From a virus, in the IMG/VR virus record IMGVR_UViG_3300006149_000007: a stretch of DNA of 64,000 nucleotides; one strand, 5' to 3'. Numbering within the stretch: position 1 is the stretch's first letter; each line of letters starts with the position of its first letter. Both the position numbers and the translations under genes were made by a program. A model generated the notes under the pieces. The model had not been told where the DNA came from and searched no databases. It saw only the letters and a list, made by a program, of their open reading frames with translations. Below, piece by piece: positions 17,724 through 57,134 of this stretch.

Positions 17724-18368
17724 TTGGAGGTGTGGGACGTGGAGAAAGTGCAGGAACAGAAGCAAGAGGTATTTGAAAACGATATAGCGTTATATCTCAA
17801 AATGTTTTGTGAGGAACAGAAGATTGAGGATATGCGGACGGCTTCACAAAGCGTCTGGAATGCCGCGTTGATGTATATCAAACGCCATGTATTTAGTGAT
17901 AGTAGTATATTAAAGCTATCTACACCTTTAGAGGGTTATGTAAATAATAATTATACTACAGATAATAATATATATAAATTAAATAACAGTAACTGTAATG
18001 CTTATGATATAGATAAGCTAAATGGTATCTGTGATTATTATATATATATCTGCATGATGTATGATAAAGAGGTATCTGTTATAGGGTTTAGTAATTTGAC
18101 TGGTGTGAGTGATACTGTAATATACGAGTGGGGAGCAGATGACAGCAGAAAGCTAAGCTCTGCGGGTTCGGCTATATACAAAAAACTTAACCAATACCGG
18201 GAGGAAAGCCTATCAAACAAACTCGTAACGGGTAGGCAAAACCCTGTGGGCGTGTTGGGTGTGCTGAATCGGCATTATGCCTGGAATATGCCGGGCGTTA
18301 GGGAGGATAAGAACAGTAAGAGGGTTATATCTGCCGAAGAGCCTATCAGATTGGATGTTAGAGATTAA
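17724..18368 (+). CDS. putative terminase small-subunit-like DNA-packaging protein
   Basis: C-terminal part GFSNLTGVSDTVIYEWG...IYKKLNQYREESLSNKL..GRQNPVGVLGVLNRHYAWN resembles HTH-type TerS proteins. Likely GTG start at 17739. Weak call. Confidence 0.35.
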   Translation: MEVWDVEKVQEQKQEVFENDIALYLKMFCEEQKIEDMRTASQSVWNAALMYIKRHVFSDSSILKLSTPLEGYVNNNYTTDNNIYKLNNSNCNAYDIDKLNGICDYYIYICMMYDKEVSVIGFSNLTGVSDTVIYEWGADDSRKLSSAGSAIYKKLNQYREESLSNKLVTGRQNPVGVLGVLNRHYAWNMPGVREDKNSKRVISAEEPIRLDVRD

Positions 18369-18599
18369 TAATTAAATTGCAACAAATAAATTGTGTAAAA
18401 ATTTAATACAATTATCTCAGTGCAAAGCCTTAAAATCATTTAAATTTTTTACACACAATTATATACAATTTAAAAACCGCATAAAATCAACGTTTTTAAT
18501 AAATAAAAGCTATTTATTTATCGGTTAAGGATTGATTTAACCGATAGAATAGCTTAATTGTCAGAATATTCATAAAAATAGAAACAATAGGGTGGGGGT

Positions 18600-18623
18600 T
18601 ATATAGAACACGTGTTCTATATA
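18600..18623. repeat. perfect 24-bp palindrome
   Basis: TATATAGAACAC|GTGTTCTATATA. Confidence 0.8.
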
Positions 18624-18739
18624 TACTTAGTCCCTTGAACTCCCGTAAAAATAAAAAACCCCTTTATATACTAGTCTTAAAAATTTTTTAAAAATAAAAA
18701 GGCTATATATATTATATATTTCATACATAATTAGAACTA

Positions 18740-18965
18740 GTGACGGTTTTTCTTCGGATGGCAGACAGGTGCATTTGTCAGTAAAGACATACAAAATCCT
18801 ATGCAGTCCTCATAAACATAAATTGGACGGTGGATAGTTGATGTAGTGGGCCAACGCAGGATTAACAGTCATCTTCGCGAGTGTACGGTTCGAATTCGTG
18901 CCTATCTATGCGGTGTAGTAGCACTACACTAGACAGGAGTAAGGCGGTCACTGCCCTGTCGAATC
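18740..18965 (+). ncRNA. candidate structured RNA (unclassified)
   Basis: ORF-free and GC-richer than the flanks. Stems: GTGTAGT-AGC-ACTACAC (18913-18929), GACAGG/CCTGTC (18932-18960) with an inner stem, and a T-arm-like GGTTCGAATTC (18887-18897). Confidence 0.35.
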
Positions 18966-19035
18966 AAAAATAATGCTGGCAGGAACATTCTTTCTGCCAG
19001 ATAAACCGCAAAATGAAGTTAGGAGGGATTTTGAT

Positions 19036-19340: not shown

Positions 19341-19913
19341 ATGAAGAAAATTCCAACACTGTTTGAAAGAGTATATGAAAATCACAAAGTCGTTGACTGT
19401 CTGCCGAATGTAACCACAGGAATGGAATGGGTACTTGAGGGAGAGGGCGTTGCAACGGTCAAAATTGACGGTTCGTGCTGCTCAATCATCAATGGCGAGT
19501 TTTATAAGCGTTATGATGCTAAAAAGGGGCGTAAAGTTCCAGATGGTGCTATTAAGTGTCAAGATGAACCAGACCCGATTACGGGGCATCTGCCTTGTTG
19601 GGTAAAATGTGACAGGGATAACCCGTCTGATAAGTGGTTTTGGGCGGCTTATGATTGCGCAATGATTGATTGTTTGAGCAAATTACAAGACGGAACATAT
19701 GAAGCTATTGGAAAGCATTTTCGCAACAATTCCTACAACATGGATTATGATGTGCTTGTACCACATGGCAGACAGGAAGTAGAGGTTGAACGTACATTTG
19801 AGGGCATAAAGAAGTATCTTTCAGAAAATTACATTGAAGGCATTGTTTTCTGGAAAGATGGACAACCTCAATGCAAGATAAAGAGGTCGGATTTTAGATT
19901 TGACTGGAAATAG
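19341..19913 (+). CDS. minimal ATP-dependent RNA (or DNA) ligase-like nucleotidyltransferase
   Basis: Motif I is VKIDGS (KxDG), motif IV-like is EGIVFWK, motif V-like is CKIKRSDF. 190 aa. Confidence 0.6.
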   Translation: MKKIPTLFERVYENHKVVDCLPNVTTGMEWVLEGEGVATVKIDGSCCSIINGEFYKRYDAKKGRKVPDGAIKCQDEPDPITGHLPCWVKCDRDNPSDKWFWAAYDCAMIDCLSKLQDGTYEAIGKHFRNNSYNMDYDVLVPHGRQEVEVERTFEGIKKYLSENYIEGIVFWKDGQPQCKIKRSDFRFDWK

Positions 19914-19919
19914 TTTCAA

Positions 19920-19991
19920 GGCGATATAGCCAAACGGTCAAGGCGGCAGTCTGCAAAACTGCTATTATCAGTTCGATTCTGATTATCGCCT
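19920..19991 (+). tRNA. tRNA-Cys: tRNA-Cys (anticodon GCA)
   Basis: Acceptor GGCGATA/TATCGCC. D-arm contains GG. Anticodon stem GCAGT/ACTGC with loop CTGCAAA. T-arm ATCAG-TTCGATT-CTGAT. No encoded CCA. Confidence 0.85.
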
Positions 19992-20096
19992 TTATAACGG
20001 ACTAGACAAAGCTAGTCGAAAAGCAAAAAACTCCGTAACTTGCCTGTCCGTTATTCAAATAAATTTACGGAGAGAAAGCATTGCGGAGGTGCGAAT

Positions 20097-23255: not shown

Positions 23256-23681
23256 ATGAAAGTAATATTTCTTGATGTAGACGGAGTATTGAACCACGGA
23301 AAACAAATAGAAAAAGTGGAAGATGATAAAATAGGACTCCTAAATCAGATTGTCAAGGCGACAAATGCAGAAATAGTTCTATCTTCTGATTGGCGTTATT
23401 GGCTCAATACAGATGATGAAGATGTGATACTTTTGGAAAGGAAATTAAGCAGTGTTGGCATAGATATTATGTCAAGTACACCCATAACAAAACATGGGTA
23501 TAGAGGGGCAGAAATATACCAATGGATAAACGAATGGAATGGAGAACAGATTGAAAAATTTGTAATTCTTGATGATAGAGATGATATGAAGCCATATATG
23601 AATAGATTGGTTCAGACATCTTTTGATTTAGGATTGCAAGAAAAGCATGTTAAAAGAGTAATACAATTATTAAACGAATAA
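23256..23681 (+). CDS. HAD-superfamily phosphatase-like protein
   Basis: Motif I FLDVDGVLN, then LSSDWR and a late ILDDRDD. This pattern resembles HAD domains seen in RNA-repair proteins. Confidence 0.6.
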   Translation: MKVIFLDVDGVLNHGKQIEKVEDDKIGLLNQIVKATNAEIVLSSDWRYWLNTDDEDVILLERKLSSVGIDIMSSTPITKHGYRGAEIYQWINEWNGEQIEKFVILDDRDDMKPYMNRLVQTSFDLGLQEKHVKRVIQLLNE

Positions 23682-44413: not shown

Positions 44414-45067
44414 ATGTTGGTGGAAACGAGAAAATTAAACAAAAGAGAAATCAATGTTGTTACAAGCCTTGATGTGTCTGAAACATTTGAGAAGGAACAT
44501 AGAAATGTATTAGCTGATATTCGCAATATTCAAAGCGAAATTAGTACCGCTGAATTTTCAGCTCTATTCTTTGAAGATGAATACAAGGCTTCTAACGGAA
44601 AGAAGAACCCCATGTATTACATGAACCGAGACGGGTTTACACTTCTTGTAATGGGTTATACCGGAGAAAAAGCCATGAGGTTTAAGTTGGCGTACATCAA
44701 TCAGTTTAACCAGATGGAGGAACTTCTCAAAGGCAAACTAATTGAAAGAGAAAAAGGAATTGTAGTTCGTCAGGCTTTTACAAAGGCATTAAAACAAAGT
44801 GGTGAAAATGAACGTATGCACAACCACGCATATTCGACTTACACTGACTTGATTTATAAAGTGGTATTTGGAAAGAACGCTAAACAGCTAAGAGAAGAAT
44901 ACGGAATAACCAAGCAGGATAATTTAAGGGATTTATTTGCACAGGAAGAGCTTGCAAAGGTAAAGTCTGTTGAAATGGTTGTCAGCGGTCTTATGGATTG
45001 CGGCTGGGGTTATGATGATATAAAAGCATTTGTAATGAATGGAGCGAAAAAGTTGATAGCAGCTTAG
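44414..45067 (+). CDS. Rha-family regulatory protein / antirepressor
   Basis: VVTSLDVSETFEKEHRNVLADIRNI...YYMNRDGFTLLVMGYTGEKAMRFKLAYINQFNQME. Confidence 0.7.
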   Translation: MLVETRKLNKREINVVTSLDVSETFEKEHRNVLADIRNIQSEISTAEFSALFFEDEYKASNGKKNPMYYMNRDGFTLLVMGYTGEKAMRFKLAYINQFNQMEELLKGKLIEREKGIVVRQAFTKALKQSGENERMHNHAYSTYTDLIYKVVFGKNAKQLREEYGITKQDNLRDLFAQEELAKVKSVEMVVSGLMDCGWGYDDIKAFVMNGAKKLIAA

Positions 45068-45099
45068 AATTTCAATACAGTTAATAAACATGGTAATTA

Positions 45100-45158
45100 C
45101 AGCAAAGATAGGGTCGCTCCCGAAAACGTCAAGCCTTAGGCGCTGCTTTGCTGTTTTT
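45100..45158 (+). terminator. terminator-like long hairpin
   Basis: CAGCAAAG...CTTTGCTG followed by TTTTT. Confidence 0.4.
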
Positions 45159-45183
45159 ATAAACAAGGTGAATTTACAGAAAG

Positions 45184-45981
45184 GTGGTAAATACTGTGAA
45201 TGATTTAATTATTAAAAATGTACCGTTTTGCCAAGCTGAATTATTGGCGGTACAGGATAAGGAAACAGGAAAGATTTATGCAGGAATAAACTGCATATTA
45301 AAAGAACTTGGATTTGATGATAGGCAGATTGAGTACAGGAGAAATAAATGGAATGATGATAAAATTATTTCCAAAGGGGTACAAAAATTTTCGTACCCAT
45401 CAGAAAACAGAGGGTATCAAGAGACGTACTGCATAGACATTAAGAAACTTCCTATTGCTCTTGCTAAAATTGAGATTACGCCTAAAATGGAAAAGAAAAT
45501 ACCAGAACTATCTGTTAGATTAGAGAAGTATCAAGATGAATGTGCGGATATTTTGGCAGAAGCTTTTATCCCTATATTCAAGAAGAAATCAGCCATAGAA
45601 GAATTACAGGAAATACAAACCAGAGCTATTCTTGAGGTTAATGAGAAAGTTGGAGAAGTGGAAAACAGGGTAACAAAACTTGAAAACAACATGACAATAA
45701 CCCATGAGCAGATACAGATAATTAAGAATCGAGTAAATGCAAAGATTGTAAAAGATATTTTAGGCGGATATGAAAATAATGCTTATAATGATATACATTT
45801 AAGAGGAAAAGTTTACAGTCGATTCAACAAAGACTACTGTGATTACTTCCGCATAAACGCAAGAGCGAATACATTAGCTTCAAAATTTGATGAAGCTTTG
45901 CACTACATAGATATGTGGGAACCGGACACAAATATAAAGCTGACAATACAATATGCCAATGCTCAAATGAATATTTCTTAG
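45184..45981 (+). CDS. P22 Ant-like antirepressor (N-terminal AR domain plus ORF6C-like C-terminus)
   Basis: VPFCQAELLAVQDKETGKIYAGINCILKELGFDDRQ...LPIALAKIEI...LEKYQDECADILAEAF. Confidence 0.55.
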   Translation: MVNTVNDLIIKNVPFCQAELLAVQDKETGKIYAGINCILKELGFDDRQIEYRRNKWNDDKIISKGVQKFSYPSENRGYQETYCIDIKKLPIALAKIEITPKMEKKIPELSVRLEKYQDECADILAEAFIPIFKKKSAIEELQEIQTRAILEVNEKVGEVENRVTKLENNMTITHEQIQIIKNRVNAKIVKDILGGYENNAYNDIHLRGKVYSRFNKDYCDYFRINARANTLASKFDEALHYIDMWEPDTNIKLTIQYANAQMNIS

Positions 45982-46018
45982 AATATTTTTAGAATCTGGC
46001 GAAAGATGACTATATTGA

Positions 46019-46744
46019 ATGAAGAAATGTTTTAAACATATGCAAGAATTAAAAATTTTTGAGAAAGAAGAGTTTGGAGCAGTAAGAATTGTAATAGTTG
46101 AGGATGAACCGTGGTTTGTGGCGAGTGACATTTGCAAAGCATTGGAAATCCAGAATGTGACGCAGGCGGTTCAGAAGTTAGATGATGATGAACGGTCTAT
46201 GTTCAACATAGGGCGTCAAGGAAGTGCCAATTGCGTGAACGAATACGGATTATACAACCTTGTATTGTCGAGCCGAAAGAAAGAAGCTAGGGAATTTAAG
46301 CGGTGGATAACCCACGAGGTACTCCCATCAATCCGCAAGCATGGAATTTATGCAACCGATAATGTGATTGATGAAATTCTGAACAATCCTGACTTTGGTA
46401 TAGAACTTCTGACAAAATTAAAAGAAGAGCGAAAAGCAAGGGTTGAAGCAGAGAAAAAGAACGCTATCCTTATGCACGTCAATAAGACATACACCATGAC
46501 AGAAATAGCCAAAGAGTTAAATTTAAAATCAGCAACGGAGCTTAATAAAATACTTGCGGAAAAGAAAGTGCAATACAAGGTAAATGATACATGGGTACTA
46601 TACTCTGATTATAGCAATTTGGGTTATGAGGACATCAAACAGGAAGTTCTTGATAATGGAAAAGTTATCTATCATAGAAAAATAACGCAAACAGGAAGAA
46701 AATTTATACTGGGATTGTTTAATAATCAAAAATATGTGAAATAA
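46019..46744 (+). CDS. BRO-N / KilA-C antirepressor
   Basis: FGAVRIVIVEDEPWFVASDICKALEI...EFKRWITHEVLPSIRKHGIY is a Bro-N domain. The C-terminus is a KilAC-like HTH. Confidence 0.75.
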   Translation: MKKCFKHMQELKIFEKEEFGAVRIVIVEDEPWFVASDICKALEIQNVTQAVQKLDDDERSMFNIGRQGSANCVNEYGLYNLVLSSRKKEAREFKRWITHEVLPSIRKHGIYATDNVIDEILNNPDFGIELLTKLKEERKARVEAEKKNAILMHVNKTYTMTEIAKELNLKSATELNKILAEKKVQYKVNDTWVLYSDYSNLGYEDIKQEVLDNGKVIYHRKITQTGRKFILGLFNNQKYVK

Positions 46745-46766
46745 AATTAAAAGATATTGAATATAT

Positions 46767-46796
46767 CGGCGGCATCTAAAATAGATGCTGCTTTTG
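46767..46796 (+). terminator. rho-independent terminator
   Basis: CGGCGGCATCT/AGATGCTGCT stem followed by TTTT. Confidence 0.6.
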
Positions 46797-46860
46797 TTAT
46801 ATAAAACAGAAGCATTTTAGTAAAATTGTAGATTATATTTTTGAAATAGGAGGTATAAGA

Positions 46861-47244
46861 ATGATTCTGGAATACAGGGAAGATAATGCTGACGATTTTA
46901 TATGGCATATGATTGAATCAGACCATATAGCGAAAAGCTGTTTCCACATTGAAGAAGATATGAAAATGTTGTCCGAAAAATCAGGAGACAGCGTATCTGA
47001 CAATTTTCATGAAATACACAACATTGCAAAGAAGATGATGAACAAGGCAGGATATTGTTCATATTTTTACACACATCTTCATGCCACAAACAAAGAAAAA
47101 ATAACGTACATAAAAGAAATTGTAATGATTGTACTGGACAGGAATAAAGGAACTGAAATTCATTTCTTTGATTCAGAATATCCGTTCAGAATTTGCTCTA
47201 AAGACGGAACAATAGTAGAAGAATCAATGCATTTTAAAATTTAA
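46861..47244 (+). CDS. hypothetical protein
   Basis: 127-aa ORF with RBS AGGAGG. Confidence 0.5.
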   Translation: MILEYREDNADDFIWHMIESDHIAKSCFHIEEDMKMLSEKSGDSVSDNFHEIHNIAKKMMNKAGYCSYFYTHLHATNKEKITYIKEIVMIVLDRNKGTEIHFFDSEYPFRICSKDGTIVEESMHFKI

Positions 47245-47246
47245 AC

Positions 47247-47269
47247 TGGCTCCCCGTTTTGAGGAGCCA
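47247..47269. terminator. bidirectional hairpin between convergent genes
   Basis: TGGCTCC/GGAGCCA stem. Confidence 0.45.
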
Positions 47270-47275
47270 TGAGAA

Positions 47276-47467
47276 TTATTCCTTGATTGAGTTAAGTATG
47301 GAACATTGTCTTGGGTGATGACAGCACCCAGTAACACTTGAAAATTCACAGATAAGTCTGCCGTTTTCAAATTTGTTTGGTTCATCTTCCAGCGTGGAAG
47401 TTGATATTTTCTCGAACTCAACAGAATAATTTCTTTTCTGCTTATTACAGAAACCATGATAAACCAT
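47276..47467 (-). CDS. small hypothetical protein
   Basis: 63 aa. Strong minus-strand RBS GAAAGGAGGTG lies 6 nt before the ATG. Confidence 0.45.
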   Translation of the reverse strand: MVYHGFCNKQKRNYSVEFEKISTSTLEDEPNKFENGRLICEFSSVTGCCHHPRQCSILNSIKE

Positions 47468-47543
47468 AGACGCACCTCCTTTCTTTCGTGATACCCTGAT
47501 TATACCACAGATATAGAAGAATGAAATTTTTGTTTTACACCAT

Positions 47544-47572
47544 TCGACAAGATTTCCTTTTTATGGTATAAT
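47544..47572 (+). promoter_or_regulatory. promoter P1 of a repeated promoter family
   Basis: TCGACA, 17-bp spacer, TGgTATAAT. Confidence 0.55.
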
Positions 47573-47599
47573 GTGGAAAACACGAAAGAGGGATAATGA

Positions 47600-48469
47600 A
47601 TGAAAAAACTAATATATAATGAAAATACCAAAGAAATAGATGTTATGGAGCAAAAAAATTGTTCAGAGAAAGAGAAACCGAAAGGATTTAAAGCATGGTT
47701 AAAAAATAATAAGATTTTCTTTGAAATTTTTTCTTTATTTTTCGTTGGAGTTATGAGTATTATATTGTCTGTGGTTGGATTACGAATAAATAAAAAAACT
47801 GCGGAAATATATCAAAAGCAATTAAAAATCGAGGAAGATAATAGAGAACCACTTTTTCAATTAAAGACCGAATTGATTAATGAAAACATTGAAAAAAATC
47901 AAAAAGAATACCGACATATAATAAAAAATGAAGGAGGGAGTATTTCATATGCTACTGCAATGATTAGAAAATATATAGAAGTTGGAATTATATCCATAGA
48001 AGGTAAAGAAATAATTGAACCAATTATTTTTAGAGCTCCAATTTCTGATAGACATTATACAGAAACAAGATTTGGCGTTCAGTATAATGAGTTTGATAAA
48101 AATTTTGTTTTGCATGAAATTGATTGCAAAGAAGATATGCTTACATTTAGTGATGAGTTATCAGGTAGGATTGCATTACTTATAGATGATACTAGGTTCT
48201 ATAGTAGTGGTATACACACATATATAGAAATTGTTTATAATGATTATCAAAACAAGCAAGTTAAAGAAAAATATGAAATAAATAATGTTTATTTTACTAA
48301 AGGCGATAAACAATATTATACTAAAAGCATGTCACCAGAGTATGATGAAGATAATATTATATATTTAGATGAAGTAAATGAAAATAATATGGAATCTATT
48401 GCCAAACAGGCGAAAAAAGAGTTTGACCGACGCTGGAATTTAGAAGAAAATCAAAATATTGAGAAATAA
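47600..48469 (+). CDS. single-pass membrane protein
   Basis: 289 aa with TM segment IFFEIFSLFFVGVMSIILSVVGL; very AT-rich. Confidence 0.55.
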   Translation: MKKLIYNENTKEIDVMEQKNCSEKEKPKGFKAWLKNNKIFFEIFSLFFVGVMSIILSVVGLRINKKTAEIYQKQLKIEEDNREPLFQLKTELINENIEKNQKEYRHIIKNEGGSISYATAMIRKYIEVGIISIEGKEIIEPIIFRAPISDRHYTETRFGVQYNEFDKNFVLHEIDCKEDMLTFSDELSGRIALLIDDTRFYSSGIHTYIEIVYNDYQNKQVKEKYEINNVYFTKGDKQYYTKSMSPEYDEDNIIYLDEVNENNMESIAKQAKKEFDRRWNLEENQNIEK

Positions 48470-48504
48470 AAATATTTATTTTTCAACTTTCTTTCCGGTA
48501 CTAC

Positions 48505-48533
48505 CTGACAAATATTCCCTATCATGGTATAAT
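48505..48533 (+). promoter_or_regulatory. promoter P2 of a repeated promoter family
   Basis: CTGACA, 17-bp spacer, TGgTATAAT. Confidence 0.55.
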
Positions 48534-48556
48534 ACAAAAAAACAAAAGAAAGGGAG

Positions 48557-49036
48557 ATGTACATGGCGTTAATTAAGTGTCCTGAATGTGGAAAGATGAT
48601 ATCCGATATGACAGATAAATGTACTGATTGTGGATATCCTATATATTTAATGAAAAGAACAATAAAAAAATGCCCATTTTGTGGCGGAATAAATTATGGA
48701 TATGATTCAACTTGCAAGAACTGTGGCGGAGAATTAGAATTAGAGCCAGAAGACACAAAATTGAATAGTGTTTCGCAATCATATAGAATTAAACACCAAA
48801 GCGAAAAGATTCAGGAAAATATACGTGTTGTCACAATATACGGAAAAGCAGTAAATAAATACGTAGCGTTACTATTGTGTATATTTTTTGGATATTTTGG
48901 TGCACATAAATTTTATGAAGGAAAAACAATCATGGGATTAATCTATTTATTTACATTAGGATTGTTTGGATTTGGTTGGCTTATAGATATTATAATTATT
49001 GCGACAAATCCGAATCCATATTATGTACAAACATGA
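48557..49036 (+). CDS. double zinc-ribbon plus TM2-domain membrane protein
   Basis: CPECG..CTDCG and CPFCGG..CKNCGG, then LLCIFFGYFGAHKFYEGKTIMGLIYLFTLGLFGFGWLIDIIII, a TM2 domain. Confidence 0.65.
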   Translation: MYMALIKCPECGKMISDMTDKCTDCGYPIYLMKRTIKKCPFCGGINYGYDSTCKNCGGELELEPEDTKLNSVSQSYRIKHQSEKIQENIRVVTIYGKAVNKYVALLLCIFFGYFGAHKFYEGKTIMGLIYLFTLGLFGFGWLIDIIIIATNPNPYYVQT

Positions 49037-49122
49037 ATCCAAAACAGAAAATTGTTATGAGGTAGCAGGATTTTGTTTTTTGCTATCTTTTGGCAAAATT
49101 TTAAATTTTCTCTTGACAATAA

Positions 49123-49151
49123 CTGACAAATTCTTCCTTTTGTGGTATAGT
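49123..49151 (+). promoter_or_regulatory. promoter P3 of a repeated promoter family
   Basis: CTGACA, 17-bp spacer, TGgTATAGT. Confidence 0.55.
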
Positions 49152-49182
49152 TAAGAAAACTACGAAAGGAAGAAATTTTGAT

Positions 49183-51096
49183 ATGGGGCTATTTGGGAAC
49201 TCAAAGCAAAATAAAGAAATTATAAATAACTTTTCATCTCAAATATTGAAACAACAAGAAATTATAGATAACTTAACAAAGGAAAATACTTTACTAAGAA
49301 AAGAATATAATAAAAATAAATCAAAAAAAGAACCTAAAGATAGTATATTCGAATTAAACAATGGGGAATATACCGGAGGTGTTGAAATACCTGCTGGAAT
49401 ATATGATTTGAAAATTTTATTTGGTTATGGAACTATGGAAATAAAAAGTTTTAACCGAATTTTTTTCAGACTATCAGAAGAAACTATTGAAAATTCAACA
49501 GAATACAACTGTGTAAGTATTTACAGAGGAACATATATAAAAATAGAAGGATATGTAAAAGTACAATTTAAACTTAGCGAATATAGTCTTTTAGAAAAAG
49601 AAGTCAAAAATCTCAGAAAGGAAAAGTTTGAATTAATAAAGGATATAGAGTATATAAGGGAATTAAAAAGTTCTGATAAAACAAATTCTAAAAATAAATT
49701 TGTTTTATGTGCAGGCAAATATAGAGGTGATATTGATATTCCTGTTGGCATGTATTCTTTGAAAATAATATCTGGGTACGGATTAGTAGAAATAGACAAA
49801 CCAGATGATATTTGGTTCTGGATGTATTCAGACGAAAAAGAGGCGAAGAAAAATGGTGGTACTAAAACATATAAAAACCTTGAAATTAGTGAAAAAAGTA
49901 TATTAAAAATTGGAGAAAGCGCAACAATAGAATTTTCTGCATCAAAAAAATGTGATTTTTCAGAAGAATATATTGATAGCAAGGAAGAAACTGAAACAAG
50001 ACTGCCTGAAATTAAAGAAGAACTTGAATCAGAAAAATATGATATAGAATATGAATTAAATATTTTAAAAGAAGAATTAAAAAGATTAAACGATGAATGT
50101 ATAAGAAAATATTATCAATTTTCTTCTTATGAATCCTTAACATCTCAAGATTGCAAAAACGAACTTGCTGTATTGAAACAGCAAGAAATCAGAATGAGAA
50201 GAGAAGAAAAAGATATTACCAAGCAAAATGGTGTAAAAATGGAAGCAAAAGATAAAAGAATTGTAAGGCAAATGCTTAGAACATTTAATGCTGAATGTGA
50301 TAATATTATGATGAACATTTCTTTGAAAAATATTGACAGAGCGAGAAATCAGATACAAAAGTCTTTTGAAACTATTAACACTATATATACAAATGGAAAT
50401 TGGCTTAGTCATTCTTTGCTGGAATTGAAATTACAACAAGTTACCTTAATGTACACATATGAATTGAAATATGAGCAAGAAAAAGAAATTCAAAAAGCAA
50501 TCAAAGAACAAATGATTGAAGAAGCAAAGGCAGAAAAAGAGATTGAGCAGCAAAAGAAAAAGATAGAAAAAGATTTACAGCAGCATTTAAGTGAAGTAAA
50601 TCGAATGATGAAGTATATGCAAAAAACGCAGATAGATGTTGAAAAACAGTTATACATGGATAAGATAAAAGAATTGGAAGAAAAGATAAAACTTCTCGAA
50701 GCTGATAAAGAAACAGTATCAGAAAGGCAAGCCAATGCTAAGGCCGGATTTGTTTACATTATATCAAATATAGGTTCTTTTGGAGAAGGTATATATAAAA
50801 TTGGAATGACAAGGCGACTTGAACCTATGGAAAGAATAAGAGAGCTAAGTTCTGCTTCTGTTCCGTTTGAATTTGATGTACATGCTATGATATTTAGCAG
50901 TAATGCGCCAGAACTGGAAACCATTTTACATAAACATTTTTCTGACAGAGCAGTTAATAAAGTAAACCCAAGAAAAGAATTTTTTAGAGTAGATATTGAT
51001 GAAATAGAGAGAGTAGTTAAGGAAAATTATAATGATACTGTGCAGTTTACAAAGATACCAGTAGCGACAGAATACAGACAGTCTATGGATTCTTAA
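49183..51096 (+). CDS. DUF4041-like coiled-coil protein with C-terminal T5orf172 (GIY-YIG-related) domain
   Basis: C-terminus GFVYIISNIGSFGEGIYKIGMTRRLEPMERIRELSSASVPFEFDVHAMIFS...EFFRV. The N-terminus has two G.Y.G..DIP.G.Y beta-repeats. Confidence 0.65.
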   Translation: MGLFGNSKQNKEIINNFSSQILKQQEIIDNLTKENTLLRKEYNKNKSKKEPKDSIFELNNGEYTGGVEIPAGIYDLKILFGYGTMEIKSFNRIFFRLSEETIENSTEYNCVSIYRGTYIKIEGYVKVQFKLSEYSLLEKEVKNLRKEKFELIKDIEYIRELKSSDKTNSKNKFVLCAGKYRGDIDIPVGMYSLKIISGYGLVEIDKPDDIWFWMYSDEKEAKKNGGTKTYKNLEISEKSILKIGESATIEFSASKKCDFSEEYIDSKEETETRLPEIKEELESEKYDIEYELNILKEELKRLNDECIRKYYQFSSYESLTSQDCKNELAVLKQQEIRMRREEKDITKQNGVKMEAKDKRIVRQMLRTFNAECDNIMMNISLKNIDRARNQIQKSFETINTIYTNGNWLSHSLLELKLQQVTLMYTYELKYEQEKEIQKAIKEQMIEEAKAEKEIEQQKKKIEKDLQQHLSEVNRMMKYMQKTQIDVEKQLYMDKIKELEEKIKLLEADKETVSERQANAKAGFVYIISNIGSFGEGIYKIGMTRRLEPMERIRELSSASVPFEFDVHAMIFSSNAPELETILHKHFSDRAVNKVNPRKEFFRVDIDEIERVVKENYNDTVQFTKIPVATEYRQSMDS

Positions 51097-51271
51097 AATG
51101 GAATGTAAAATTTTTAAATTTTCCTCAATAATAAATAACGAAAGGATTAATTTTATTTATGAAAAGACTAATGATTATGTTGCCGATGTGTAATATTCCT
51201 CTTATAACTTATAGAATTGAAGGGTATTGCAAAAATAAAATAATGATAAAAAACTAAATGGAGGATTACTT

Positions 51272-52213
51272 ATGAAACGAAAGAAATTTATTAATTTGCT
51301 AATGTCTTTGTTGTTAATATGTTCTCTGTCTGCATGTTCAAAAAAATCAGAAAATAAACCAGAACAACAAAAAGAAACCGAAAGTCAATCAAAAGAAGAA
51401 ATCAAAAAATCAGAAGATGACATTACTGAGTTTGAAAAGATAAAGGAGTCAATTTTTGAAGAAGCAAGAAAAGAATCAAATTCTGATGAAACTTTATTGT
51501 ATTTGGTGCAATTATTTGAAGAAACTTATTCATTAGTTTCAAAAGTAAATACTTGGGAGGAGTTTATAGAAATAGGAGACGACAAAGGAATATTTACTTA
51601 TGCAATAGCTTGTTTTGTAGAAAAATCAAAAGATGGAACAATATTACATGAAGCAGGAGAAGAAGCTTGGCAGGCAATAGAAGCTTTATATAATAATGAT
51701 GGTTCATACAAAACTCATATAGAAAAAGTAAAATCCATTTGGGAAGAAAGCGGAAATTTTTTATATGAATCGATTTATCGTGAAGGTCAATACAAAGTAG
51801 GAGTTGATATTCCTTCGGGCGAATATGTGATTTTTTCGGGTTATACAAATTCGGGTTATTTTTCACTTACATCAGATTCTAACGGGAACGATATAATAGC
51901 AAATGAAAACTTTGATTATAATTCAATAATAACTATATATGACGGAGAATATATAGAGCTATCGAGAAGCAAAGCGGTTCCTATATCAGAAGTTACAAGC
52001 CTTCCAAAAGATAAATCGGATATGTTTAAAATCGGAGTTCATTTGCCTGCTGGAGAATATAAACTTATAGCCGATGAAGTTGGTGGGTATTATTGTGTAT
52101 ATAATGATAATAGGCAGCAAGACATAGAATCTAATGATAATTTTAGTGGGCAATCTTATGTTACTGTTAAAGACGGTCAATATTTAGTTTTGTCAAGATG
52201 CAGAATAGAGTAA
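51272..52213 (+). CDS. lipoprotein with two G.Y.VG.DIP.GEY repeats
   Basis: Lipobox LSAC. Repeats QYKVGVDIPSGEYVIF and FKIGVHLPAGEYKLI resemble those in the 49183 protein. Confidence 0.6.
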   Translation: MKRKKFINLLMSLLLICSLSACSKKSENKPEQQKETESQSKEEIKKSEDDITEFEKIKESIFEEARKESNSDETLLYLVQLFEETYSLVSKVNTWEEFIEIGDDKGIFTYAIACFVEKSKDGTILHEAGEEAWQAIEALYNNDGSYKTHIEKVKSIWEESGNFLYESIYREGQYKVGVDIPSGEYVIFSGYTNSGYFSLTSDSNGNDIIANENFDYNSIITIYDGEYIELSRSKAVPISEVTSLPKDKSDMFKIGVHLPAGEYKLIADEVGGYYCVYNDNRQQDIESNDNFSGQSYVTVKDGQYLVLSRCRIE

Positions 52214-52248
52214 TGTTAAAATAAAAATATAATTTTTCAAATTTCCTC

Positions 52249-52278
52249 TTGACAAAATGTAGCAACATAATATATAAT
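52249..52278 (+). promoter_or_regulatory. sigma-A-type promoter
   Basis: TTGACA, 18-bp spacer, TATAAT. Confidence 0.5.
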
Positions 52279-52314
52279 TAAATCGTAACCAAAATTTGAA
52301 AGGAGGTTGATAGC

Positions 52315-52494
52315 GTGTCACCCAGAACGGGGCAAAAAATCAAAGACAACCCGAAAGATTTTATGCTTAGAACAAGACTTGATAGCGAAACACTTGAAAA
52401 ATTGGATTATTCTGCTGAAAAGTTTGGCGTAAGTCGGTCAGAGGTTGTCAGAAATGGTATCGAAAGTGAATACCAAAAAGCAAGAGAACAGTAA
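52315..52494 (+). CDS. ribbon-helix-helix protein (copy 1, 59 aa)
   Basis: GTG start after AGGAGG. Reads VSPRTGQKIKDNPKDFMLRTRLDSETLEKLDYSAEKFGVSRSEVVRNGIE. Confidence 0.5.
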   Translation: MSPRTGQKIKDNPKDFMLRTRLDSETLEKLDYSAEKFGVSRSEVVRNGIESEYQKAREQ

Positions 52495-52624
52495 AAGAGC
52501 AATCGGCATAACTTGGCGGTCAGCGATTGCTCAATCCCAACACCCTAAAAAAGTGTCTATTGATATAATACCACTTTTTTTAGGGAATGTCAAAAACATT
52601 TTTTAGAAAGGTGGTATTTTTTTA

Positions 52625-52720
52625 ATGAGCAGCAAAGAAAACAACGAAGAAACTGAAAACATCACACCAGAACCAATCACAACCGAACATCTTGCTCTTG
52701 AGGTTTTGAAAATTTTTTAA
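52625..52720 (+). pseudogene. truncated copy of the 53100 gene
   Basis: MSSKENNEETENITPEPITTEHLALEVLKIF stop. It shares TTEHLALE(I/V)LK with the 53100..53372 product but lacks the TM segment and C-terminus. Confidence 0.4.
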
Positions 52721-52729
52721 AATTAGGGG

Positions 52730-52770
52730 TTGACTTGTGCCCGTACTAATGTTAATATAAATGTACGGGC
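52730..52770 (+). promoter_or_regulatory. promoter with flanking 8-bp inverted repeat
   Basis: TTGACT, 17-bp spacer, TAATAT. GCCCGTAC (52739-46) and GTACGGGC (52763-70) bracket the -10 box. Confidence 0.5.
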
Positions 52771-52787
52771 GAAAGTGAGGTGATAAA

Positions 52788-52967
52788 GTGTCGCCACGTA
52801 CAGGCAGACCAACAGCCAATAAAAAGACAGAACGGTTAGAGATACGTCTTGCACCTGATGAATTAGAACTGATAGAGAAATGTTCTGAAATTCTTGGAAT
52901 TAGTAAAACAGATGTAATAAATAAAGGTGTAAAATTGGTGAAGGCTGAAATTGACAAGCAAAAATAA
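52788..52967 (+). CDS. ribbon-helix-helix protein (copy 2, 59 aa)
   Basis: VSPRTGRPTANKKTERLEIRLAPDELELIEKCSEILGISKTDVINKGV. Confidence 0.5.
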   Translation: MSPRTGRPTANKKTERLEIRLAPDELELIEKCSEILGISKTDVINKGVKLVKAEIDKQK

Positions 52968-53099
52968 GAGTAATCGCTCAACCTACCACAGCATTGCGAT
53001 TACCCTTGTTGGCACCAGAGGTTTCCCACTGATAAATCTAATTATATCAGATATGGAAGCCTCTTTCAAGAACTTTTTTTGAAGGAGGTATTATTTTAA

Positions 53100-53372
53100 A
53101 TGAATGACAATGAAAAGATTACAACCGAGCATCTCGCTCTTGAAATCCTGAAGCAGGAGCAGGAAAAATCAAAGGCGAAGAACGTCGGCATTATCAGCTT
53201 AACCGTAGCAGTAGTCATCATCGCTATCGGAATGGCGCTTATCAACTACCAGAACGACCACGAATGGCGTGCTTTATTCGATTCCTACGACTTTATCTCA
53301 CAAGACGGTGAAGGCTTCAACAACGTTAATTCTGGCACACAAGGCAATCTGGATAATTCAGACGCAGAATAG
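53100..53372 (+). CDS. single-TM small protein
   Basis: 90 aa with TM segment IISLTVAVVIIAIGMALI. Confidence 0.5.
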   Translation: MNDNEKITTEHLALEILKQEQEKSKAKNVGIISLTVAVVIIAIGMALINYQNDHEWRALFDSYDFISQDGEGFNNVNSGTQGNLDNSDAE

Positions 53373-53382
53373 GGGGTGTGGC

Positions 53383-53568
53383 ATGAAAAGAACAGTAAAG
53401 CAGAGAGTTGATGAATACGTCAAGAAACACCCTGAAGTCCATAGTAGCCTTTTGGTTATGGATATGAATGATATAAGGGAACTCGGAAACATGGTTGATG
53501 TTATCAGTACCGCATTTGCTTATGGCTACATGAAGGGCGCAAAGGCGAAGAAAGGCGGTGCAAGATGA
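53383..53568 (+). CDS. hypothetical protein
   Basis: 61 aa from ATG 53383, after GGGGG. Confidence 0.4.
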   Translation: MKRTVKQRVDEYVKKHPEVHSSLLVMDMNDIRELGNMVDVISTAFAYGYMKGAKAKKGGAR

Positions 53569-53672
53569 TAGCTTATAAAGCAGCTTTATTAAAACTTCTT
53601 GACCGCTTGTCAGACAAGTCAATCAAGCGTTTGTATCAGCTTGCAGAGTATCTTTATGTTTATAAAGAGTAG
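53565..53672 (+). CDS. small hypothetical protein (35 aa)
   Basis: ATGA coupling to the upstream gene. Confidence 0.25.
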   Translation: MIAYKAALLKLLDRLSDKSIKRLYQLAEYLYVYKE

Positions 53673-53685
53673 GAGGTGTGAAAAA

Positions 53686-54471
53686 ATGAACGATATGATT
53701 GTAAAGAATGTTGATGTTCTTGGCGATAGCATTATGGCGGCGAAGGATAGCGACGAAAATGTGTATGCAGGAGTAAGCTATTTTTGCAACGCTCTTGGTA
53801 TGAGCAGAGGTCAAAAGAACAGACAAGTCATAAATGTCCAGAAGGACGAAACTTTAAAGAGAGGGTGTATCAAATTAGGTGCAGGGGTACTTGATGAAGG
53901 CAATGAAACAATCGCATTAAGAATTGACTTTATACCTTTATGGCTTGCTAAAATTTCCATTACGGACAAGACAAAGCGAGAAAATCCCGAACTTGCCGAC
54001 AAACTCTTAGAGTACCAGTTAAAGGCAAAGGACATTCTTACGGAAGCATTTATGCCAAAACAAAGTATGCCACAAACAACAGACGGAAAAATAGCCTTGC
54101 TTGCGCAGGGGCATACGGAACTGAAAGCAGAAGTTGACGAAATCAAGGTGGATTTACAGGCTTTGAAACTCGACTTGCCGCTTATGCCGGTAGAAGCTGA
54201 TGAAATTTCAAATCGAATCAAAAAGCGTGGTGTAGAAATTCTCGGCGGTAAATCATCATCGGCATACAATGACCGCAGTATCAGACAGAAATTATATAAT
54301 AACTATTATTTCTACCTGAAACAGAATTTTAATGTCGGCTCGTATAAAGCCATAAAACGGAATAGACGCAATCAGGCGTTAGAAATTATTGAAGAATATA
54401 AGCCACCGTTGTTTCTGAAAGAAATGATAGAAGAATCGAATACGGCGAAGAAAGGCGTTTCTAATGACTGA
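53686..54471 (+). CDS. P22 Ant-like antirepressor (second copy of this architecture)
   Basis: VYAGVSYFCNALGMSRGQ...IPLWLAKISI...LLEYQLKAKDILTEAF. The C-terminus is ORF6C-like (ILGGKSSSAYND). Confidence 0.55.
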   Translation: MNDMIVKNVDVLGDSIMAAKDSDENVYAGVSYFCNALGMSRGQKNRQVINVQKDETLKRGCIKLGAGVLDEGNETIALRIDFIPLWLAKISITDKTKRENPELADKLLEYQLKAKDILTEAFMPKQSMPQTTDGKIALLAQGHTELKAEVDEIKVDLQALKLDLPLMPVEADEISNRIKKRGVEILGGKSSSAYNDRSIRQKLYNNYYFYLKQNFNVGSYKAIKRNRRNQALEIIEEYKPPLFLKEMIEESNTAKKGVSND

Positions 54472-54637
54472 TAAGGTACATGAATATTCAGAAAAGCACA
54501 TCGGGTTTCTTACTGAATGGGAACATGGAGAGCCGGTTGGAAGTTGGATTAACAACGAAGGTTTCCTGTGTATCATTTACGAAGACGGCGCATGGTGGCA
54601 TTACAAGGTAGAAAATGATAAATTGGTATGGTGGTAG
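54464..54637 (+). CDS. small Trp-rich protein (57 aa)
   Basis: Start overlaps the upstream stop. Below the ORF-track cutoff. Confidence 0.3.
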   Translation: MTDKVHEYSEKHIGFLTEWEHGEPVGSWINNEGFLCIIYEDGAWWHYKVENDKLVWW

Positions 54638-54688
54638 ATAACCACTAGAAGCTGACTTAACGGCTTGACGGAGAGAAAGAGGCACATA

Positions 54689-55027
54689 ATGAAAATAAGA
54701 AATTTGACACCCCACGATATTACGGTTTTTGCGGATGATTATAATGAAATGCCTTATATTATCCCTACTGCTGGTATTGTTGCAAGAGTTTCCACTACAC
54801 AAGAAACTGTTGGAAATATTAATGGTATACCGGTACAAAAGGTAAAATATGGTAGTGTGGAAAACTTACCAGAACCACAGGAAGATGTAGTATTTATAGT
54901 ATCCCAAATGGTTTTATCCGCATTAAACGGAAGTCGAACAGATGTATTTGCTCCGGATACAGGGAAAGGAGCTGTACGAGACAAAGAAGGTAAAATTTTA
55001 GGGACCCTTAATTTGATAGTTTTATAA
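54689..55027 (+). CDS. hypothetical protein
   Basis: 112 aa from ATG 54689. Confidence 0.45.
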   Translation: MKIRNLTPHDITVFADDYNEMPYIIPTAGIVARVSTTQETVGNINGIPVQKVKYGSVENLPEPQEDVVFIVSQMVLSALNGSRTDVFAPDTGKGAVRDKEGKILGTLNLIVL

Positions 55028-55072
55028 TAAAATAAGCTGAGCTATCAGCTATACAGGCAGAAAGGGAAAACT

Positions 55073-55237
55073 ATGGTAGCAGTTAAAGTATATCGTTGTG
55101 GTCCTCATATTTTCCGAAATAAAGAAGAACGTAACAGGCATGCGGCAGAGCATGGACAACACGGATATGGAAACTATGTATATTGCACAGTTGACATAAA
55201 AAATATCGGAAAAACGCTATTTTATTATTATAAATAA
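55073..55237 (+). CDS. small hypothetical protein (54 aa)
   Basis: RBS AAAGGGA upstream. Below the ORF-track cutoff. Confidence 0.3.
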   Translation: MVAVKVYRCGPHIFRNKEERNRHAAEHGQHGYGNYVYCTVDIKNIGKTLFYYYK

Positions 55238-55252
55238 GAGGAGGCGTGTGTT

Positions 55253-55456
55253 ATGAAAATTTATATTATAACAGCGGAAACGCTGATGGATAAAGATGAG
55301 CGTGCTGTTGAGTTTACTTTGCTTGGAGCGTATACGAGCTTAAGAAAAGCAAAGAAAAAGCACAAAGAAGCAGAAAAAAAATTTGTGATTGCGAAGCTGA
55401 CAACAGTTAATAGCAGAACAGATTGTTGGGAGCAAATCGGACACTATTACGAATAA
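55253..55456 (+). CDS. hypothetical protein
   Basis: 67-aa ORF with RBS GAGGAGG. Confidence 0.4.
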   Translation: MKIYIITAETLMDKDERAVEFTLLGAYTSLRKAKKKHKEAEKKFVIAKLTTVNSRTDCWEQIGHYYE

Positions 55457-55471
55457 AAGAAAGGAAATGGT

Positions 55472-56227
55472 ATGGCAAGACCACCAAAACAGGGACTTGA
55501 CTACTTTCCTTTTGATACTGATTTTTTTCAGAATAAAAAAATTAAAAAGTTAAAAGCAGAGTATGGTGCAGATGGTATTGCTATCTATATGTACCTGCTC
55601 TGCGAAATATATAAAAACGGGTACTACATCATAGCTGACGAAGATTTTATAGATTCTATGGCTGACGACCTGAGAATGAACGTTAATAAAATAAACCTAG
55701 TTTTGAGATTCTTGCTGGGGCGGTCACTGTTTGACAACACACTTTTCCAGTCGGACACTGTCTTGACTAGCGTATCTGTACAGAGGCGTTATCAGTTCGC
55801 AGTCCAAGAGCGTATAAATGACCATAGTGCAAATATAGAGGATTTCTGGCTGTTAAAAAAATCAGATACAGAAACCCTTGGACAAGTGCACCCATTTTTA
55901 AAAAATTCCGAGGAAAAATTCGCAAAGGAAAGTAAAGAAAATAAAAGTAAATTAAATGAAAGTATATTAGAGCGTAAAGAGGGGAAAACTCTCACGCCCG
56001 AGGAAAAAGAACGGCTAATAAAAGAATATGGTGTTGAGGTAACGGAAGACTACATACGGCGTACCACACAATACCATTGTTGCAGTTATGCCACAATCAG
56101 GAAATGGATAGCGGAGGACAAAGAGAAGGAACAGAGCCGAAAGCCAAAAAAGAATACCTTTAACAATATTCCACAACATGATTATGATTTTGATGAATTG
56201 GAAAGAAAACTATTAAAAAGAAACTAG
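55472..56227 (+). CDS. DUF4373-type (Lin1244-like) replisome-organizer N-terminal domain protein
   Basis: MARPPKQGLDYFPFDTDFFQNKKIKKLKAEYGADGIAIYMYLLCEIYKNGYY. Confidence 0.55.
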   Translation: MARPPKQGLDYFPFDTDFFQNKKIKKLKAEYGADGIAIYMYLLCEIYKNGYYIIADEDFIDSMADDLRMNVNKINLVLRFLLGRSLFDNTLFQSDTVLTSVSVQRRYQFAVQERINDHSANIEDFWLLKKSDTETLGQVHPFLKNSEEKFAKESKENKSKLNESILERKEGKTLTPEEKERLIKEYGVEVTEDYIRRTTQYHCCSYATIRKWIAEDKEKEQSRKPKKNTFNNIPQHDYDFDELERKLLKRN

Positions 56228-56233
56228 ATTTTC

Positions 56234-56262
56234 TTGACATAAAGATTTTATAGTGGTATTAT
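56234..56262 (+). promoter_or_regulatory. sigma-A-type promoter (extended -10) with ~180-nt leader
   Basis: TTGACA, 17-bp spacer, TGgTATTAT. Confidence 0.5.
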
Positions 56263-56441
56263 ACAAATTAATTGAATAAATTCAGATAAATCATGATTAA
56301 TTCATGTGTAAGATACAGTTTTAATTTATTTTTAGTGTTCGGAGATTCGAAACCCTAGCACATCGGCAGACATTTTTGTCTGTTTGGTGAGCTGGGGTTT
56401 TCCTTTTAGAAAAAATTATCAATATCAGGAGGAATAATATT

Positions 56442-57134
56442 ATGAATGAGATTATCGAAACAGCAAACAGGACACCAATTGAGATTGCATTACAGATTGA
56501 TGACGAAGGGTACACTACATCAAGAAAATTGTACTTTTGGTTATACGAAAATGGTACCCATTATGCAAAATGGCTTAAAGAAAACGTGACAGAAAATCCG
56601 TTTGCAGAAGAAAATGAGTTTTCGCCAATCTTGCGAAAACCCCAAAAACAGGGAGGTAGACCGACAGAGGACTACAAAATCACAGCTTCACTTGCAAAAA
56701 GAATTTCTATGGCTGATAAGTCAGAGCGTGGAGAACAAGCAAGAAATTATTTCATAGGTTGCGAACAGGCACTTGTTAGAATTGCAGAAGAAAGACACAA
56801 AACAGAGATGGAAAGAGCCAAAGGAATCGCGGTAAGACAGGCATTAACAAAGGCAATTCAGCAATCAGGCGAAAATGACCGTATGCACGGACATGCTTAT
56901 TCAACATATACAGACGTGATGTATAAATCTATATTTGGAAAAAATGCAAAACAGTTACGAGTAGAATATGGAATTACAAAAAAAGATAATTTAAGAGATA
57001 TTTTTTCTGAAGAGGAATTAAATCGGGTACAAAATGCAGAAATGATGATTAGTTCTCTTATTGGGTATGGTTGGGGTTTTTGTGATATAAAAGATTTCAT
57101 GTTAAATAAGGCAAATAAGATGATTACAGAATAA
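56442..57134 (+). CDS. AntA-type antirepressor with the Rha-paralog C-terminal domain
   Basis: HYAKWLKENVTENPFAEENEF...GGRPTEDYKITASLAKRISMADKSERGEQARNYFI. The C-terminus is about 65% identical to that of the 44414 protein, by eye. Confidence 0.6.
   Translation: MNEIIETANRTPIEIALQIDDEGYTTSRKLYFWLYENGTHYAKWLKENVTENPFAEENEFSPILRKPQKQGGRPTEDYKITASLAKRISMADKSERGEQARNYFIGCEQALVRIAEERHKTEMERAKGIAVRQALTKAIQQSGENDRMHGHAYSTYTDVMYKSIFGKNAKQLRVEYGITKKDNLRDIFSEEELNRVQNAEMMISSLIGYGWGFCDIKDFMLNKANKMITE

Follow-up and report, generated by a model that had tools for sequence, protein, structure and literature searches.

Gene content of the ligase locus

The DNA analyzed here is a stretch of 64,000 nucleotides (nt) from IMG/VR virus record IMGVR_UViG_3300006149_000007, referred to below as the window, and the subject of the analysis is a small RNA ligase gene that lies directly before a phage tRNA-Cys gene. 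A gene for a HAD-type phosphatase is located farther downstream. A first-pass annotation of the window had proposed that ligase, phosphatase, and spare tRNA together form a counter-defense by tRNA repair, by analogy with the Rnl1 ligase and Pnkp of phage T4, which repair tRNA cut by the host anticodon nuclease PrrC. All three genes were confirmed at the following positions.

19341..19913, plus strand: RLIG1-family (DUF5565-type) RNA ligase gene, 190 amino acids, ATG start, GGAG 8-9 nt upstream
19920..19991 (Rfam boundaries), plus strand: tRNA-Cys gene of the phage with anticodon GCA and discriminator U73, CCA not encoded, RF00005 score 67.5 bits (gathering score 29)
23256..23681, plus strand: stand-alone capless HAD phosphatase (HAD_SAK_2), 141 amino acids from the ATG common to all homologues

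Family assignment of the ligase

By homology, the product of the open reading frame (ORF) at 19341-19913 is firmly assigned to the RLIG1/C12orf29 family (Pfam PF17720, formerly DUF5565). The ORF matched PHROG 14301, "RNA ligase", over its full length with E 8.7e-55, and the sequence of the Yasminevirus RLIG1 crystal structure (PDB 9c6l) was matched both by the single ligase sequence using phmmer (E 8.5e-11) and by a profile built from 46 diverse homologues of the ligase (E 1.3e-25, profile positions 31-192). The PHROG and profile values place the assignment far beyond chance. An AlphaFold2 model of the 190-residue chain had a pLDDT of 92.6, and when this model was used as a Foldseek query the top 12 matches were all chains of 9c6l and 9c6m (TM scores of 0.68-0.75, best probability 1.00), which were also the sole significant matches. 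The next matches were to the Naegleria Rnl5 ligase, at E ~0.03.

The motifs KIDG (K41-D43-G44), EGIVFWK (E166), and KIKR (K179-K181), which had led the first-pass annotation to describe the ORF as a ligase-like covalent nucleotidyltransferase, are present in the translation and map onto the catalytic residues of YspRLIG1. Seven catalytic residues were located in the ligase: K41 and D43 (motif I), R57 (motif Ia), E121 (motif III), H142 (motif IIIa), E166 (motif IV), and K179 (motif V). In HMMER alignments, with residues numbered as in Hu et al. (PMC11494293), K41-I-D43-G44 was aligned with K73/D75 of YspRLIG1, and R57, E121, H142, E166, and K179 were aligned with R89, E174, H195, E240, and K253. 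In the Yasminevirus enzyme (YspRLIG1), mutation at these positions lowers both adenylylation and ligation (PMC11494293). All seven residues are invariant in an alignment of close homologues of the ligase; among the 46 diverse homologues, which extend down to 37% identity, D43, G44, E121, H142, and E166 are invariant and K41, R57, and K179 are at least 90% conserved. The protein consists of the nucleotidyltransferase domain only, as had been suspected, without an OB domain or a C-terminal domain of the Rnl1/Rnl2 type; the chain ends directly past motif V, and no second domain was found in it by a Pfam scan.

The ligase had been described as unusually small, which is correct in comparison with the classical ligases but not within its own family, where a length of about 190 residues is the norm for the bacterial and phage branch: the 5,377 relatives recovered by a word-indexed search are mostly 185-218 amino acids long. 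An exhaustive search for relatives yielded 1,512 clusters at 50% identity. Relatives come from Blautia, Dorea, Ruminococcus, and Oscillospiraceae, among other taxa of the gut and rumen. In phages of Mycobacterium, Ralstonia, and Cellulophaga, the homologue is already annotated as "RNA ligase". Ten longer relatives (265-329 amino acids) were inspected and contained the RLIG1 domain alone, with no second recognizable domain or fusion to a partner.

Profiling against the ligase families, as the first-pass annotation had recommended, matched RLIG1 and no other ligase family by sequence. An identity as one of Rnl1-5 or as a DNA ligase was considered and set aside in favor of RLIG1, since no sequence match was obtained and the marginal fold matches were to Naegleria Rnl5 alone. 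That the ORF encodes a DNA ligase, or an inactive remnant that the phage carries as a passenger, is very improbable. Such a reading could draw on the lack of accessory domains (OB fold, Rnl1/Rnl2 C-terminal domains) and on the fact that substrate choice is unreadable from sequence alone, but the catalytic residues are all intact and are conserved across the 1,512 clusters, the significant sequence and fold matches are to RNA ligases only, and the human family member leaves nicks in duplexes unsealed, whether of DNA or of RNA (PMC9931718).

Human RLIG1 is a 5'-phosphate/3'-hydroxyl RNA ligase that joins open hairpin loops and leaves duplex nicks unsealed (PMC9931718). It joins tRNA within the anticodon loop, as do "several" purified bacterial and viral homologues (Hu et al., PMC11494293), and the tRNA halves joined by these enzymes carry 5'-phosphate/3'-hydroxyl ends (PMC11494293). 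In the same work the RLIG1 fold was termed "minimal and atypical", and viral RLIG1 was predicted to counter host immunity in the manner of T4 Rnl1 (PMC11494293). In the neighborhoods of 390 bacterial DUF5565 genes, tRNA genes occurred in over 20% and were significantly over-represented (PMC10364804). The family, the joining of tRNA halves by its members, their enrichment in the vicinity of tRNA genes, and the idea of counter-defense have all been published already, and the core of the idea put forward in the first-pass annotation is a standing prediction for the family.

The tRNA-Cys gene and its junction with the ligase

The tRNA-Cys gene folds into a complete cloverleaf with all four arms paired and with the anticodon loop CUGCAAA; its boundaries were placed at 19919-19992 by ARAGORN. 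The discriminator U73 and the anticodon GCA are identity elements for CysRS. The gap of 6 nt between the ligase stop codon and the tRNA, noticed earlier, was confirmed with the Rfam start at 19920. No terminator-like site was found between the two genes, from which it follows that they are probably co-transcribed. An identical ligase was found on 22 metagenome contigs with the same gene layout, and the 6-nt junction with tRNA-Cys is kept in two non-identical relatives, with ligases 81% (locus L087) and 73% (L256) identical to that of the window, so that the physical coupling of the ligase to a phage tRNA holds beyond the window. In a further relative with an 88% identical ligase (L090), tRNA-Pro, Ser, Cys, and Ile are located 1-3.5 kb downstream instead of at a tight junction.

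The ligase was compared across 80 IMG/VR viral loci (L001-L080), 80 loci from species-representative genomes, and 3 annotated phages. A tRNA at less than 300 nt from the ligase was found in none of the 160 viral and genome loci, and tight adjacency of ligase and tRNA is a feature of the lineage of the window phage. At a distance of up to 5 kb, a tRNA was present in 37 of the 80 viral loci and 10 of the 80 genome loci; when the viral loci were grouped at 80% ligase identity, 6 of 15 groups had one. The viral ligase loci contain 69 tRNAs, of which 68 sit 0-5 kb upstream of the ligase and 1 lies further upstream. Among the tRNA blocks upstream of the ligase, ARAGORN reported a possible suppressor tRNA ("Stop" tta) in L028 and L030, and odd anticodons in L050 (4-base, gaaa) and in L028 (2-base).

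RNA elements around the ligase

The ligase and tRNA-Cys genes are flanked by the following features.

18800..19013, plus strand: conserved non-coding leader of the ligase cassette, comprising a tRNA-like element and then conserved hairpins
18831-18909, plus strand: tRNA-like element in the leader, 7-bp acceptor-like stem and T arm with a canonical TTCGAAT loop
19036..19230, plus strand: small Cys-rich (zinc-ribbon-like) ORF, 64 amino acids, directly upstream of the ligase
19995..20070, plus strand: Rfam RF02996 match (int-alpA RNA motif) at 40.1 bits, the gathering score being 35.8

Blocks of the leader are ~90-96% identical in L087, L090, L255, and L256. The tRNA-like element was found by ARAGORN at a relaxed threshold only; it has no convincing D or anticodon arms and no Rfam tRNA match, and its minimum free energy z-score of -0.5 is unremarkable. 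In four relatives the sequence of its stems differs while the pairing is kept: in a hand-cut alignment, 10 of 13 pairs were changed on both sides and 98.5% of cells were paired. The segment between the acceptor and T stems varies from 43 to ~150 nt among relatives. A search of IMG/VR with an exact pattern for the element gave no match, and only two further copies were found in the metagenomes searched. The element may represent a novel structured RNA or a processing signal; alternatively, different tRNA genes, decayed or intron-bearing, may occupy one slot. The 64-residue Cys-rich ORF is called as a gene in the identical metagenome contigs and has a 61-residue counterpart at the same position in L087; it matched no Pfam or PHROG family.

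The int-alpA motif starts 4 nt past tRNA-Cys, just 5' of a DnaD-like ORF (ATG at 20097), and marks the downstream edge of the ligase-tRNA unit. It also occurs past the tRNA block in L087 (2614-2680), L090 (9539-9607), L032 (8673-8739), and L255, where one of two copies begins 4 nt after tRNA-Cys. In two relatives a phage transfer-messenger RNA (tmRNA) is located directly 3' of tRNA-Cys, with a gap of 3-4 nt and Rfam scores of 92.5 and 76.7 bits; no tmRNA was detected in the window by ARAGORN or Rfam. The tag peptides of the tmRNAs in the ligase relatives are ANEKLAMVA and ADRKLAMVA. The tmRNAs adjoining tRNA-Cys in the closest non-identical relatives are located as follows.

L087 1947-2249: tmRNA
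L090 8690-8993: tmRNA
L088 1226-1528: tmRNA

Related phage loci also gave matches to type II hammerhead ribozymes (62 and 45 bits) and to a RAGATH-27 RNA (92 bits), at the following sites.

L032 2732-2801, minus strand
L007 3230-3298, minus strand
L255 6053-6136, minus strand

This arrangement, with a tRNA-like element upstream of the ligase and with tRNA-Cys, and then tmRNA in relatives, downstream of it, raises the question of whether the enzyme serves the RNA metabolism of the phage itself, by processing or joining transcripts, circularizing RNA, or maturing the neighboring tRNA, tRNA-like element, or tmRNA. It is established enzymology that RNase P products have 5'-phosphate and 3'-hydroxyl ends, which are substrates of this class of ligase. 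However, tRNA-Cys and the tmRNAs are intact and unpermuted and would need no ligation, no split or permuted RNA gene was found, and most members of the ligase family have no RNA gene nearby. We regard a role of this kind as unlikely.

The HAD phosphatase and the search for repair partners

The HAD gene lies 3.3 kb downstream of the ligase and 64 nt before the large terminase gene (terL). Its product matched Pfam PF18143 (HAD_SAK_2), described as "HAD domain in Swiss Army Knife RNA repair proteins", over its full length with E 1.2e-25 and 90.9 bits against a cut-off of 27.5. The motifs D7xD9, S43-S44, R83, and D106-D107 are present; in 35 homologues no variation was seen at D7, D9, S43, S44, or R83, and conservation of D106 and D107 was at least 90%. 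The AlphaFold2 model had a pLDDT of 95.9, and its fold matches were weak, with none at E <= 0.001; they included HisB-N (TM score 0.62) and the phosphatase domains of T4 Pnkp (E ~0.01, TM score ~0.5) and Pnkp1. Its motifs and model suggest that the HAD is enzymatically active. Stand-alone "Swiss-army-knife" HADs of jumbo phages have been predicted to be RNA 3'-phosphatases (Iyer et al., PMC7824862), and the protein of the window is a candidate for the same activity, which may serve to trim 3'-phosphates from RNA.

Stand-alone HAD_SAK_2 genes were found at no more than 1 kb from phage tRNA arrays in 11 of 60 lineages (clusters at 70% identity), with gaps as small as 6 nt in some, and within 5 kb in 20 of 60, and the HAD may be tRNA-related in its own right. 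Examples among the HAD-centered viral loci (L095-L174) are L100, L120, L128, where a tRNA lies 6 nt from the HAD gene, and L160, with 32 tRNAs. RtcB was present within 10 kb in 4 of these 80 loci.

Co-occurrence of ligase and HAD was determined using tblastn, followed by hidden Markov models built from 83 ligases and 35 HADs and run on the six-frame ORFs of 80 viral ligase loci, 80 genome ligase loci, and 80 HAD-centered loci. No HAD was found within 10 kb of the ligase in any of 163 other ligase loci (80 viral, 80 genome, and the 3 annotated phages), and no ligase was found within 10 kb of the HAD in any of the 80 HAD-centered viral loci. A conserved partnership of HAD with ligase was rejected on the basis of this lack of co-occurrence in 243 other loci. 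The HAD was likewise not found on the DNA examined from the 81% (L087) and 88% (L090) relatives; in L087 the slot before the terminase is filled by an unrelated 150-residue gene, while the ligase and tRNA-Cys are kept. The HAD is best read as a separate accessory gene that fills the slot before terL, rather than as a partner of the ligase. The slot ~74 nt upstream of terL, which is occupied by the ligase in 46 of 80 related viral loci and by the HAD in the window, looks like an exchangeable position for accessory genes.

Kinases were searched for throughout the window. The Walker-A pattern [GA]xxxxGK[ST] was absent from every reading-frame segment of at least 70 residues in the 64 kb, and no kinase family was found among the ORFs scanned, which bears out the earlier remark that no kinase was visible. 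A T4-like pathway for 2',3'-cyclic-phosphate/5'-hydroxyl ends is consequently incomplete. Of the proposed tRNA-repair counter-defense, the part that stands is the one published as a prediction for viral RLIG1 (PMC11494293), whereas a T4-like heal-and-seal reaction on PrrC-type ends does not, there being no 5' kinase.

The proposal that ligase, HAD, and tRNA-Cys act as one coherent system, with the HAD removing 3'- or 2',3'-cyclic phosphates, the ligase sealing, the tRNA serving as a spare, and the host supplying the 5' kinase, fared poorly and is now judged quite unlikely. The HAD does belong to a family named for predicted RNA-repair phosphatases (PF18143; PMC7824862), the T4 Pnkp and Pnkp1 phosphatase domains are among its weak fold matches, its relatives lie close to tRNA arrays in the 11 lineages mentioned above, and both genes belong to the window phage (the ligase on 22 contigs, the HAD on 17). 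These points are opposed by the absence of each gene from the loci of the other, by the 81% relative that keeps ligase and tRNA-Cys with an unrelated gene in the pre-terminase slot, by the seven unrelated genes that separate ligase and HAD in the window, by the missing kinase, which would leave 5'-hydroxyl ends unsealable, and by the lack of any structural match of the HAD at E <= 0.001.

Other genes that adjoin the ligase in the comparison loci are consistent with an RNA-repair theme. Calcineurin-like metallophosphoesterases (Pfam Metallophos) adjoin it in three clusters of 7, 7, and 5 genome loci (~20 in all), RtcB (PF01139, E 1e-60) in 4 genome and 3 viral loci, and an HNH+AAA_33 P-loop protein in 4 genome loci. 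Because similar counts of metallophosphoesterases were obtained within 10 kb in the HAD comparison loci, no enrichment near the ligase is claimed. Examples of these ligase-neighbor genes are located as follows.

L189 770-1552
L231 10564-11223
L192 6993-7697
L182 3186-4400
L185 13248-13946

Proposed role of the ligase

The explanation that we prefer, and consider probable, is that the gene encodes a sealing-only RLIG1-family RNA ligase, situated in a phage tRNA island, which repairs RNA cut during infection. By homology, K41 of the ligase would be adenylylated by ATP, the AMP would then be passed to a 5'-phosphate RNA end, and attack by a 3'-hydroxyl end would close the break. The preferred substrates would be breaks in single-stranded loops, for example the anticodon loop of tRNA. 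The ligase and tRNA-Cys would be carried on one transcript, from which the tRNA would be freed by RNase P, and the enzyme would mend tRNA, or other structured RNA, after cleavage by nucleases whose products have 5'-phosphate and 3'-hydroxyl ends. Ends of this type are left by metal-dependent PIN, Toprim, and HNH nucleases and not by PrrC-type enzymes. The phage tRNA, together with tmRNA in relatives, would provide spare translation capacity.

Several observations weigh against this explanation. The score of the ligase against Pfam PF17720 was 21.3 bits, narrowly under the cut-off of 25, with residues 111-189 alone matched; this is attributed to the Pfam model, which rests mainly on longer animal proteins, and the cut-off is passed by relatives 42-60% identical to the ligase (25.5-50.5 bits), while many relatives 65-80% identical carry a precomputed PF17720 match. 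No tRNA was present within 5 kb in 70 of the 80 genome ligase loci, and in the annotated phages Collard, phi10:1, and RP12 the ligase has no tRNA, kinase, or phosphatase nearby. In 46 of the 80 viral loci the ligase sits ~74 nt before terL, and in the comparison set a tRNA was found within 5 kb in 24 of the 80 HAD-centered phage loci. The proximity of ligase and tRNA may thus be partly positional, because both occupy the pre-terminase region as accessory genes. The best-known anticodon nucleases, PrrC, RloC, and the colicins, leave 2',3'-cyclic-phosphate ends along with 5'-hydroxyl ends, which a sealing-only ligase is unable to use. The host of this phage is not known to carry a nuclease that acts on tRNA-Cys or one that produces ends the ligase could join.

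A broader proposal would combine the tRNA-like element, the Cys-rich ORF, the ligase, and tRNA-Cys (with tmRNA in relatives) into a co-transcribed counter-defense island directed against a metal-dependent tRNA nuclease of the host (PIN, Toprim, or HNH type), with the tRNA-like element acting as a decoy or processing signal and the HAD extending the range to 3'-phosphate ends. A target nuclease leaving 5'-phosphate/3'-hydroxyl ends would account for repair without a kinase or phosphatase. We consider this proposal a long shot.

If the ligase acts in the sealing-only manner preferred here, this phage lineage would be a compact natural case of healing-free tRNA repair by a 190-residue enzyme, among the smallest polynucleotide ligases, and would offer a handle for finding the host nuclease that is countered. 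The value of the present analysis is confirmatory, in that it adds one more well-delimited RLIG1 member and a negative result on the HAD as a conserved partner.

Genome context

The window is phage DNA throughout, with genes for an integrase, RNase H, HNH endonucleases, a DnaD-like protein, a tape-measure-like protein, a tail fiber, a GH25 lysin, and an antirepressor block. The large terminase gene matched PHROG 38 (E 6e-40) and is followed by a gene for an SPP1-type portal. The source is a temperate, siphovirus-like phage of ~64 kb, and its host is probably Blautia or another member of the Lachnospiraceae. The ligase gene lies within a small RNA island, located where the early/replication genes border on those for packaging. 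No relative of the whole region at the DNA level was found among 50,697 phage records.

Three further observations were made. A perfect 24-bp palindrome (TATATAGAACAC/GTGTTCTATATA) is located at 18600-18623, within an AT-rich, ORF-free stretch (18368-18800). In L018 (10650-13433), the terL homologue adjacent to the ligase encodes 918 amino acids, compared with 601 in the window, and the extra segment appeared putatively intein-like by eye. Between the tail genes and the tail-fiber and lysin genes of the window lies a low-GC region (28-38%) that is dense with genes of the antirepressor and regulator type.

44414-57131: region containing genes for Rha, two P22_AR_N+ORF6C paralogues, Bro-N/ANT, AntA, Lin1244_N, and a DUF4041/T5orf172 protein

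Comparison with known systems

The T4 system of Rnl1 and Pnkp, which acts against PrrC, resembles the locus in that an ATP-dependent RNA ligase of the same superfamily and a HAD-type phosphatase are encoded in one phage genome, and in the logic of restoring the tRNA pool. In contrast to T4 Rnl1, the ligase of the window is not of the Rnl1 family, with no sequence or fold match to it, and has no C-terminal tRNA-binding domain. In contrast to T4 Pnkp, no polynucleotide kinase is present in the window, and the phosphatase has a stand-alone gene of its own, with no conserved linkage to the ligase. Unlike the T4 system, the ligase alone would be unable to mend breaks with 2',3'-cyclic-phosphate/5'-hydroxyl ends. 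The Rnl5 ligase of Naegleria gruberi (NgrRnl, 5cot) differs in having an N-terminal OB-like domain and in sealing nicks in duplex RNA, and its similarity to the ligase is marginal (TM scores of 0.3-0.48).

The HAD of the window is a clear member of the phage Swiss-army-knife HADs (PF18143, 90.9 bits; PMC7824862), with all catalytic motifs and with a stand-alone domain as in jumbo phages. It differs from the jumbo-phage proteins in belonging to a temperate phage of ~64 kb, where it directly precedes the terminase, and in having no adjoining ATP-grasp ligase partner of the kinds described there (Rnl1/Rnl2).

The closest comparison is with the RLIG1 enzymes of Yasminevirus (9c6l/9c6m) and human. 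The phage ligase is shorter, at 190 amino acids compared with 277 for the Yasminevirus and 325 for the human protein, and in alignment with the Yasminevirus enzyme it shows no counterpart of the N-terminal extension or of two internal insertions. It has the same fold (TM score 0.75 to 9c6l) and the same residues in motifs I, Ia, III, IIIa, IV, and V, it likewise consists of a nucleotidyltransferase domain without a separate RNA-binding domain, and by homology it is predicted to share their 5'-phosphate/3'-hydroxyl RNA ligation chemistry.

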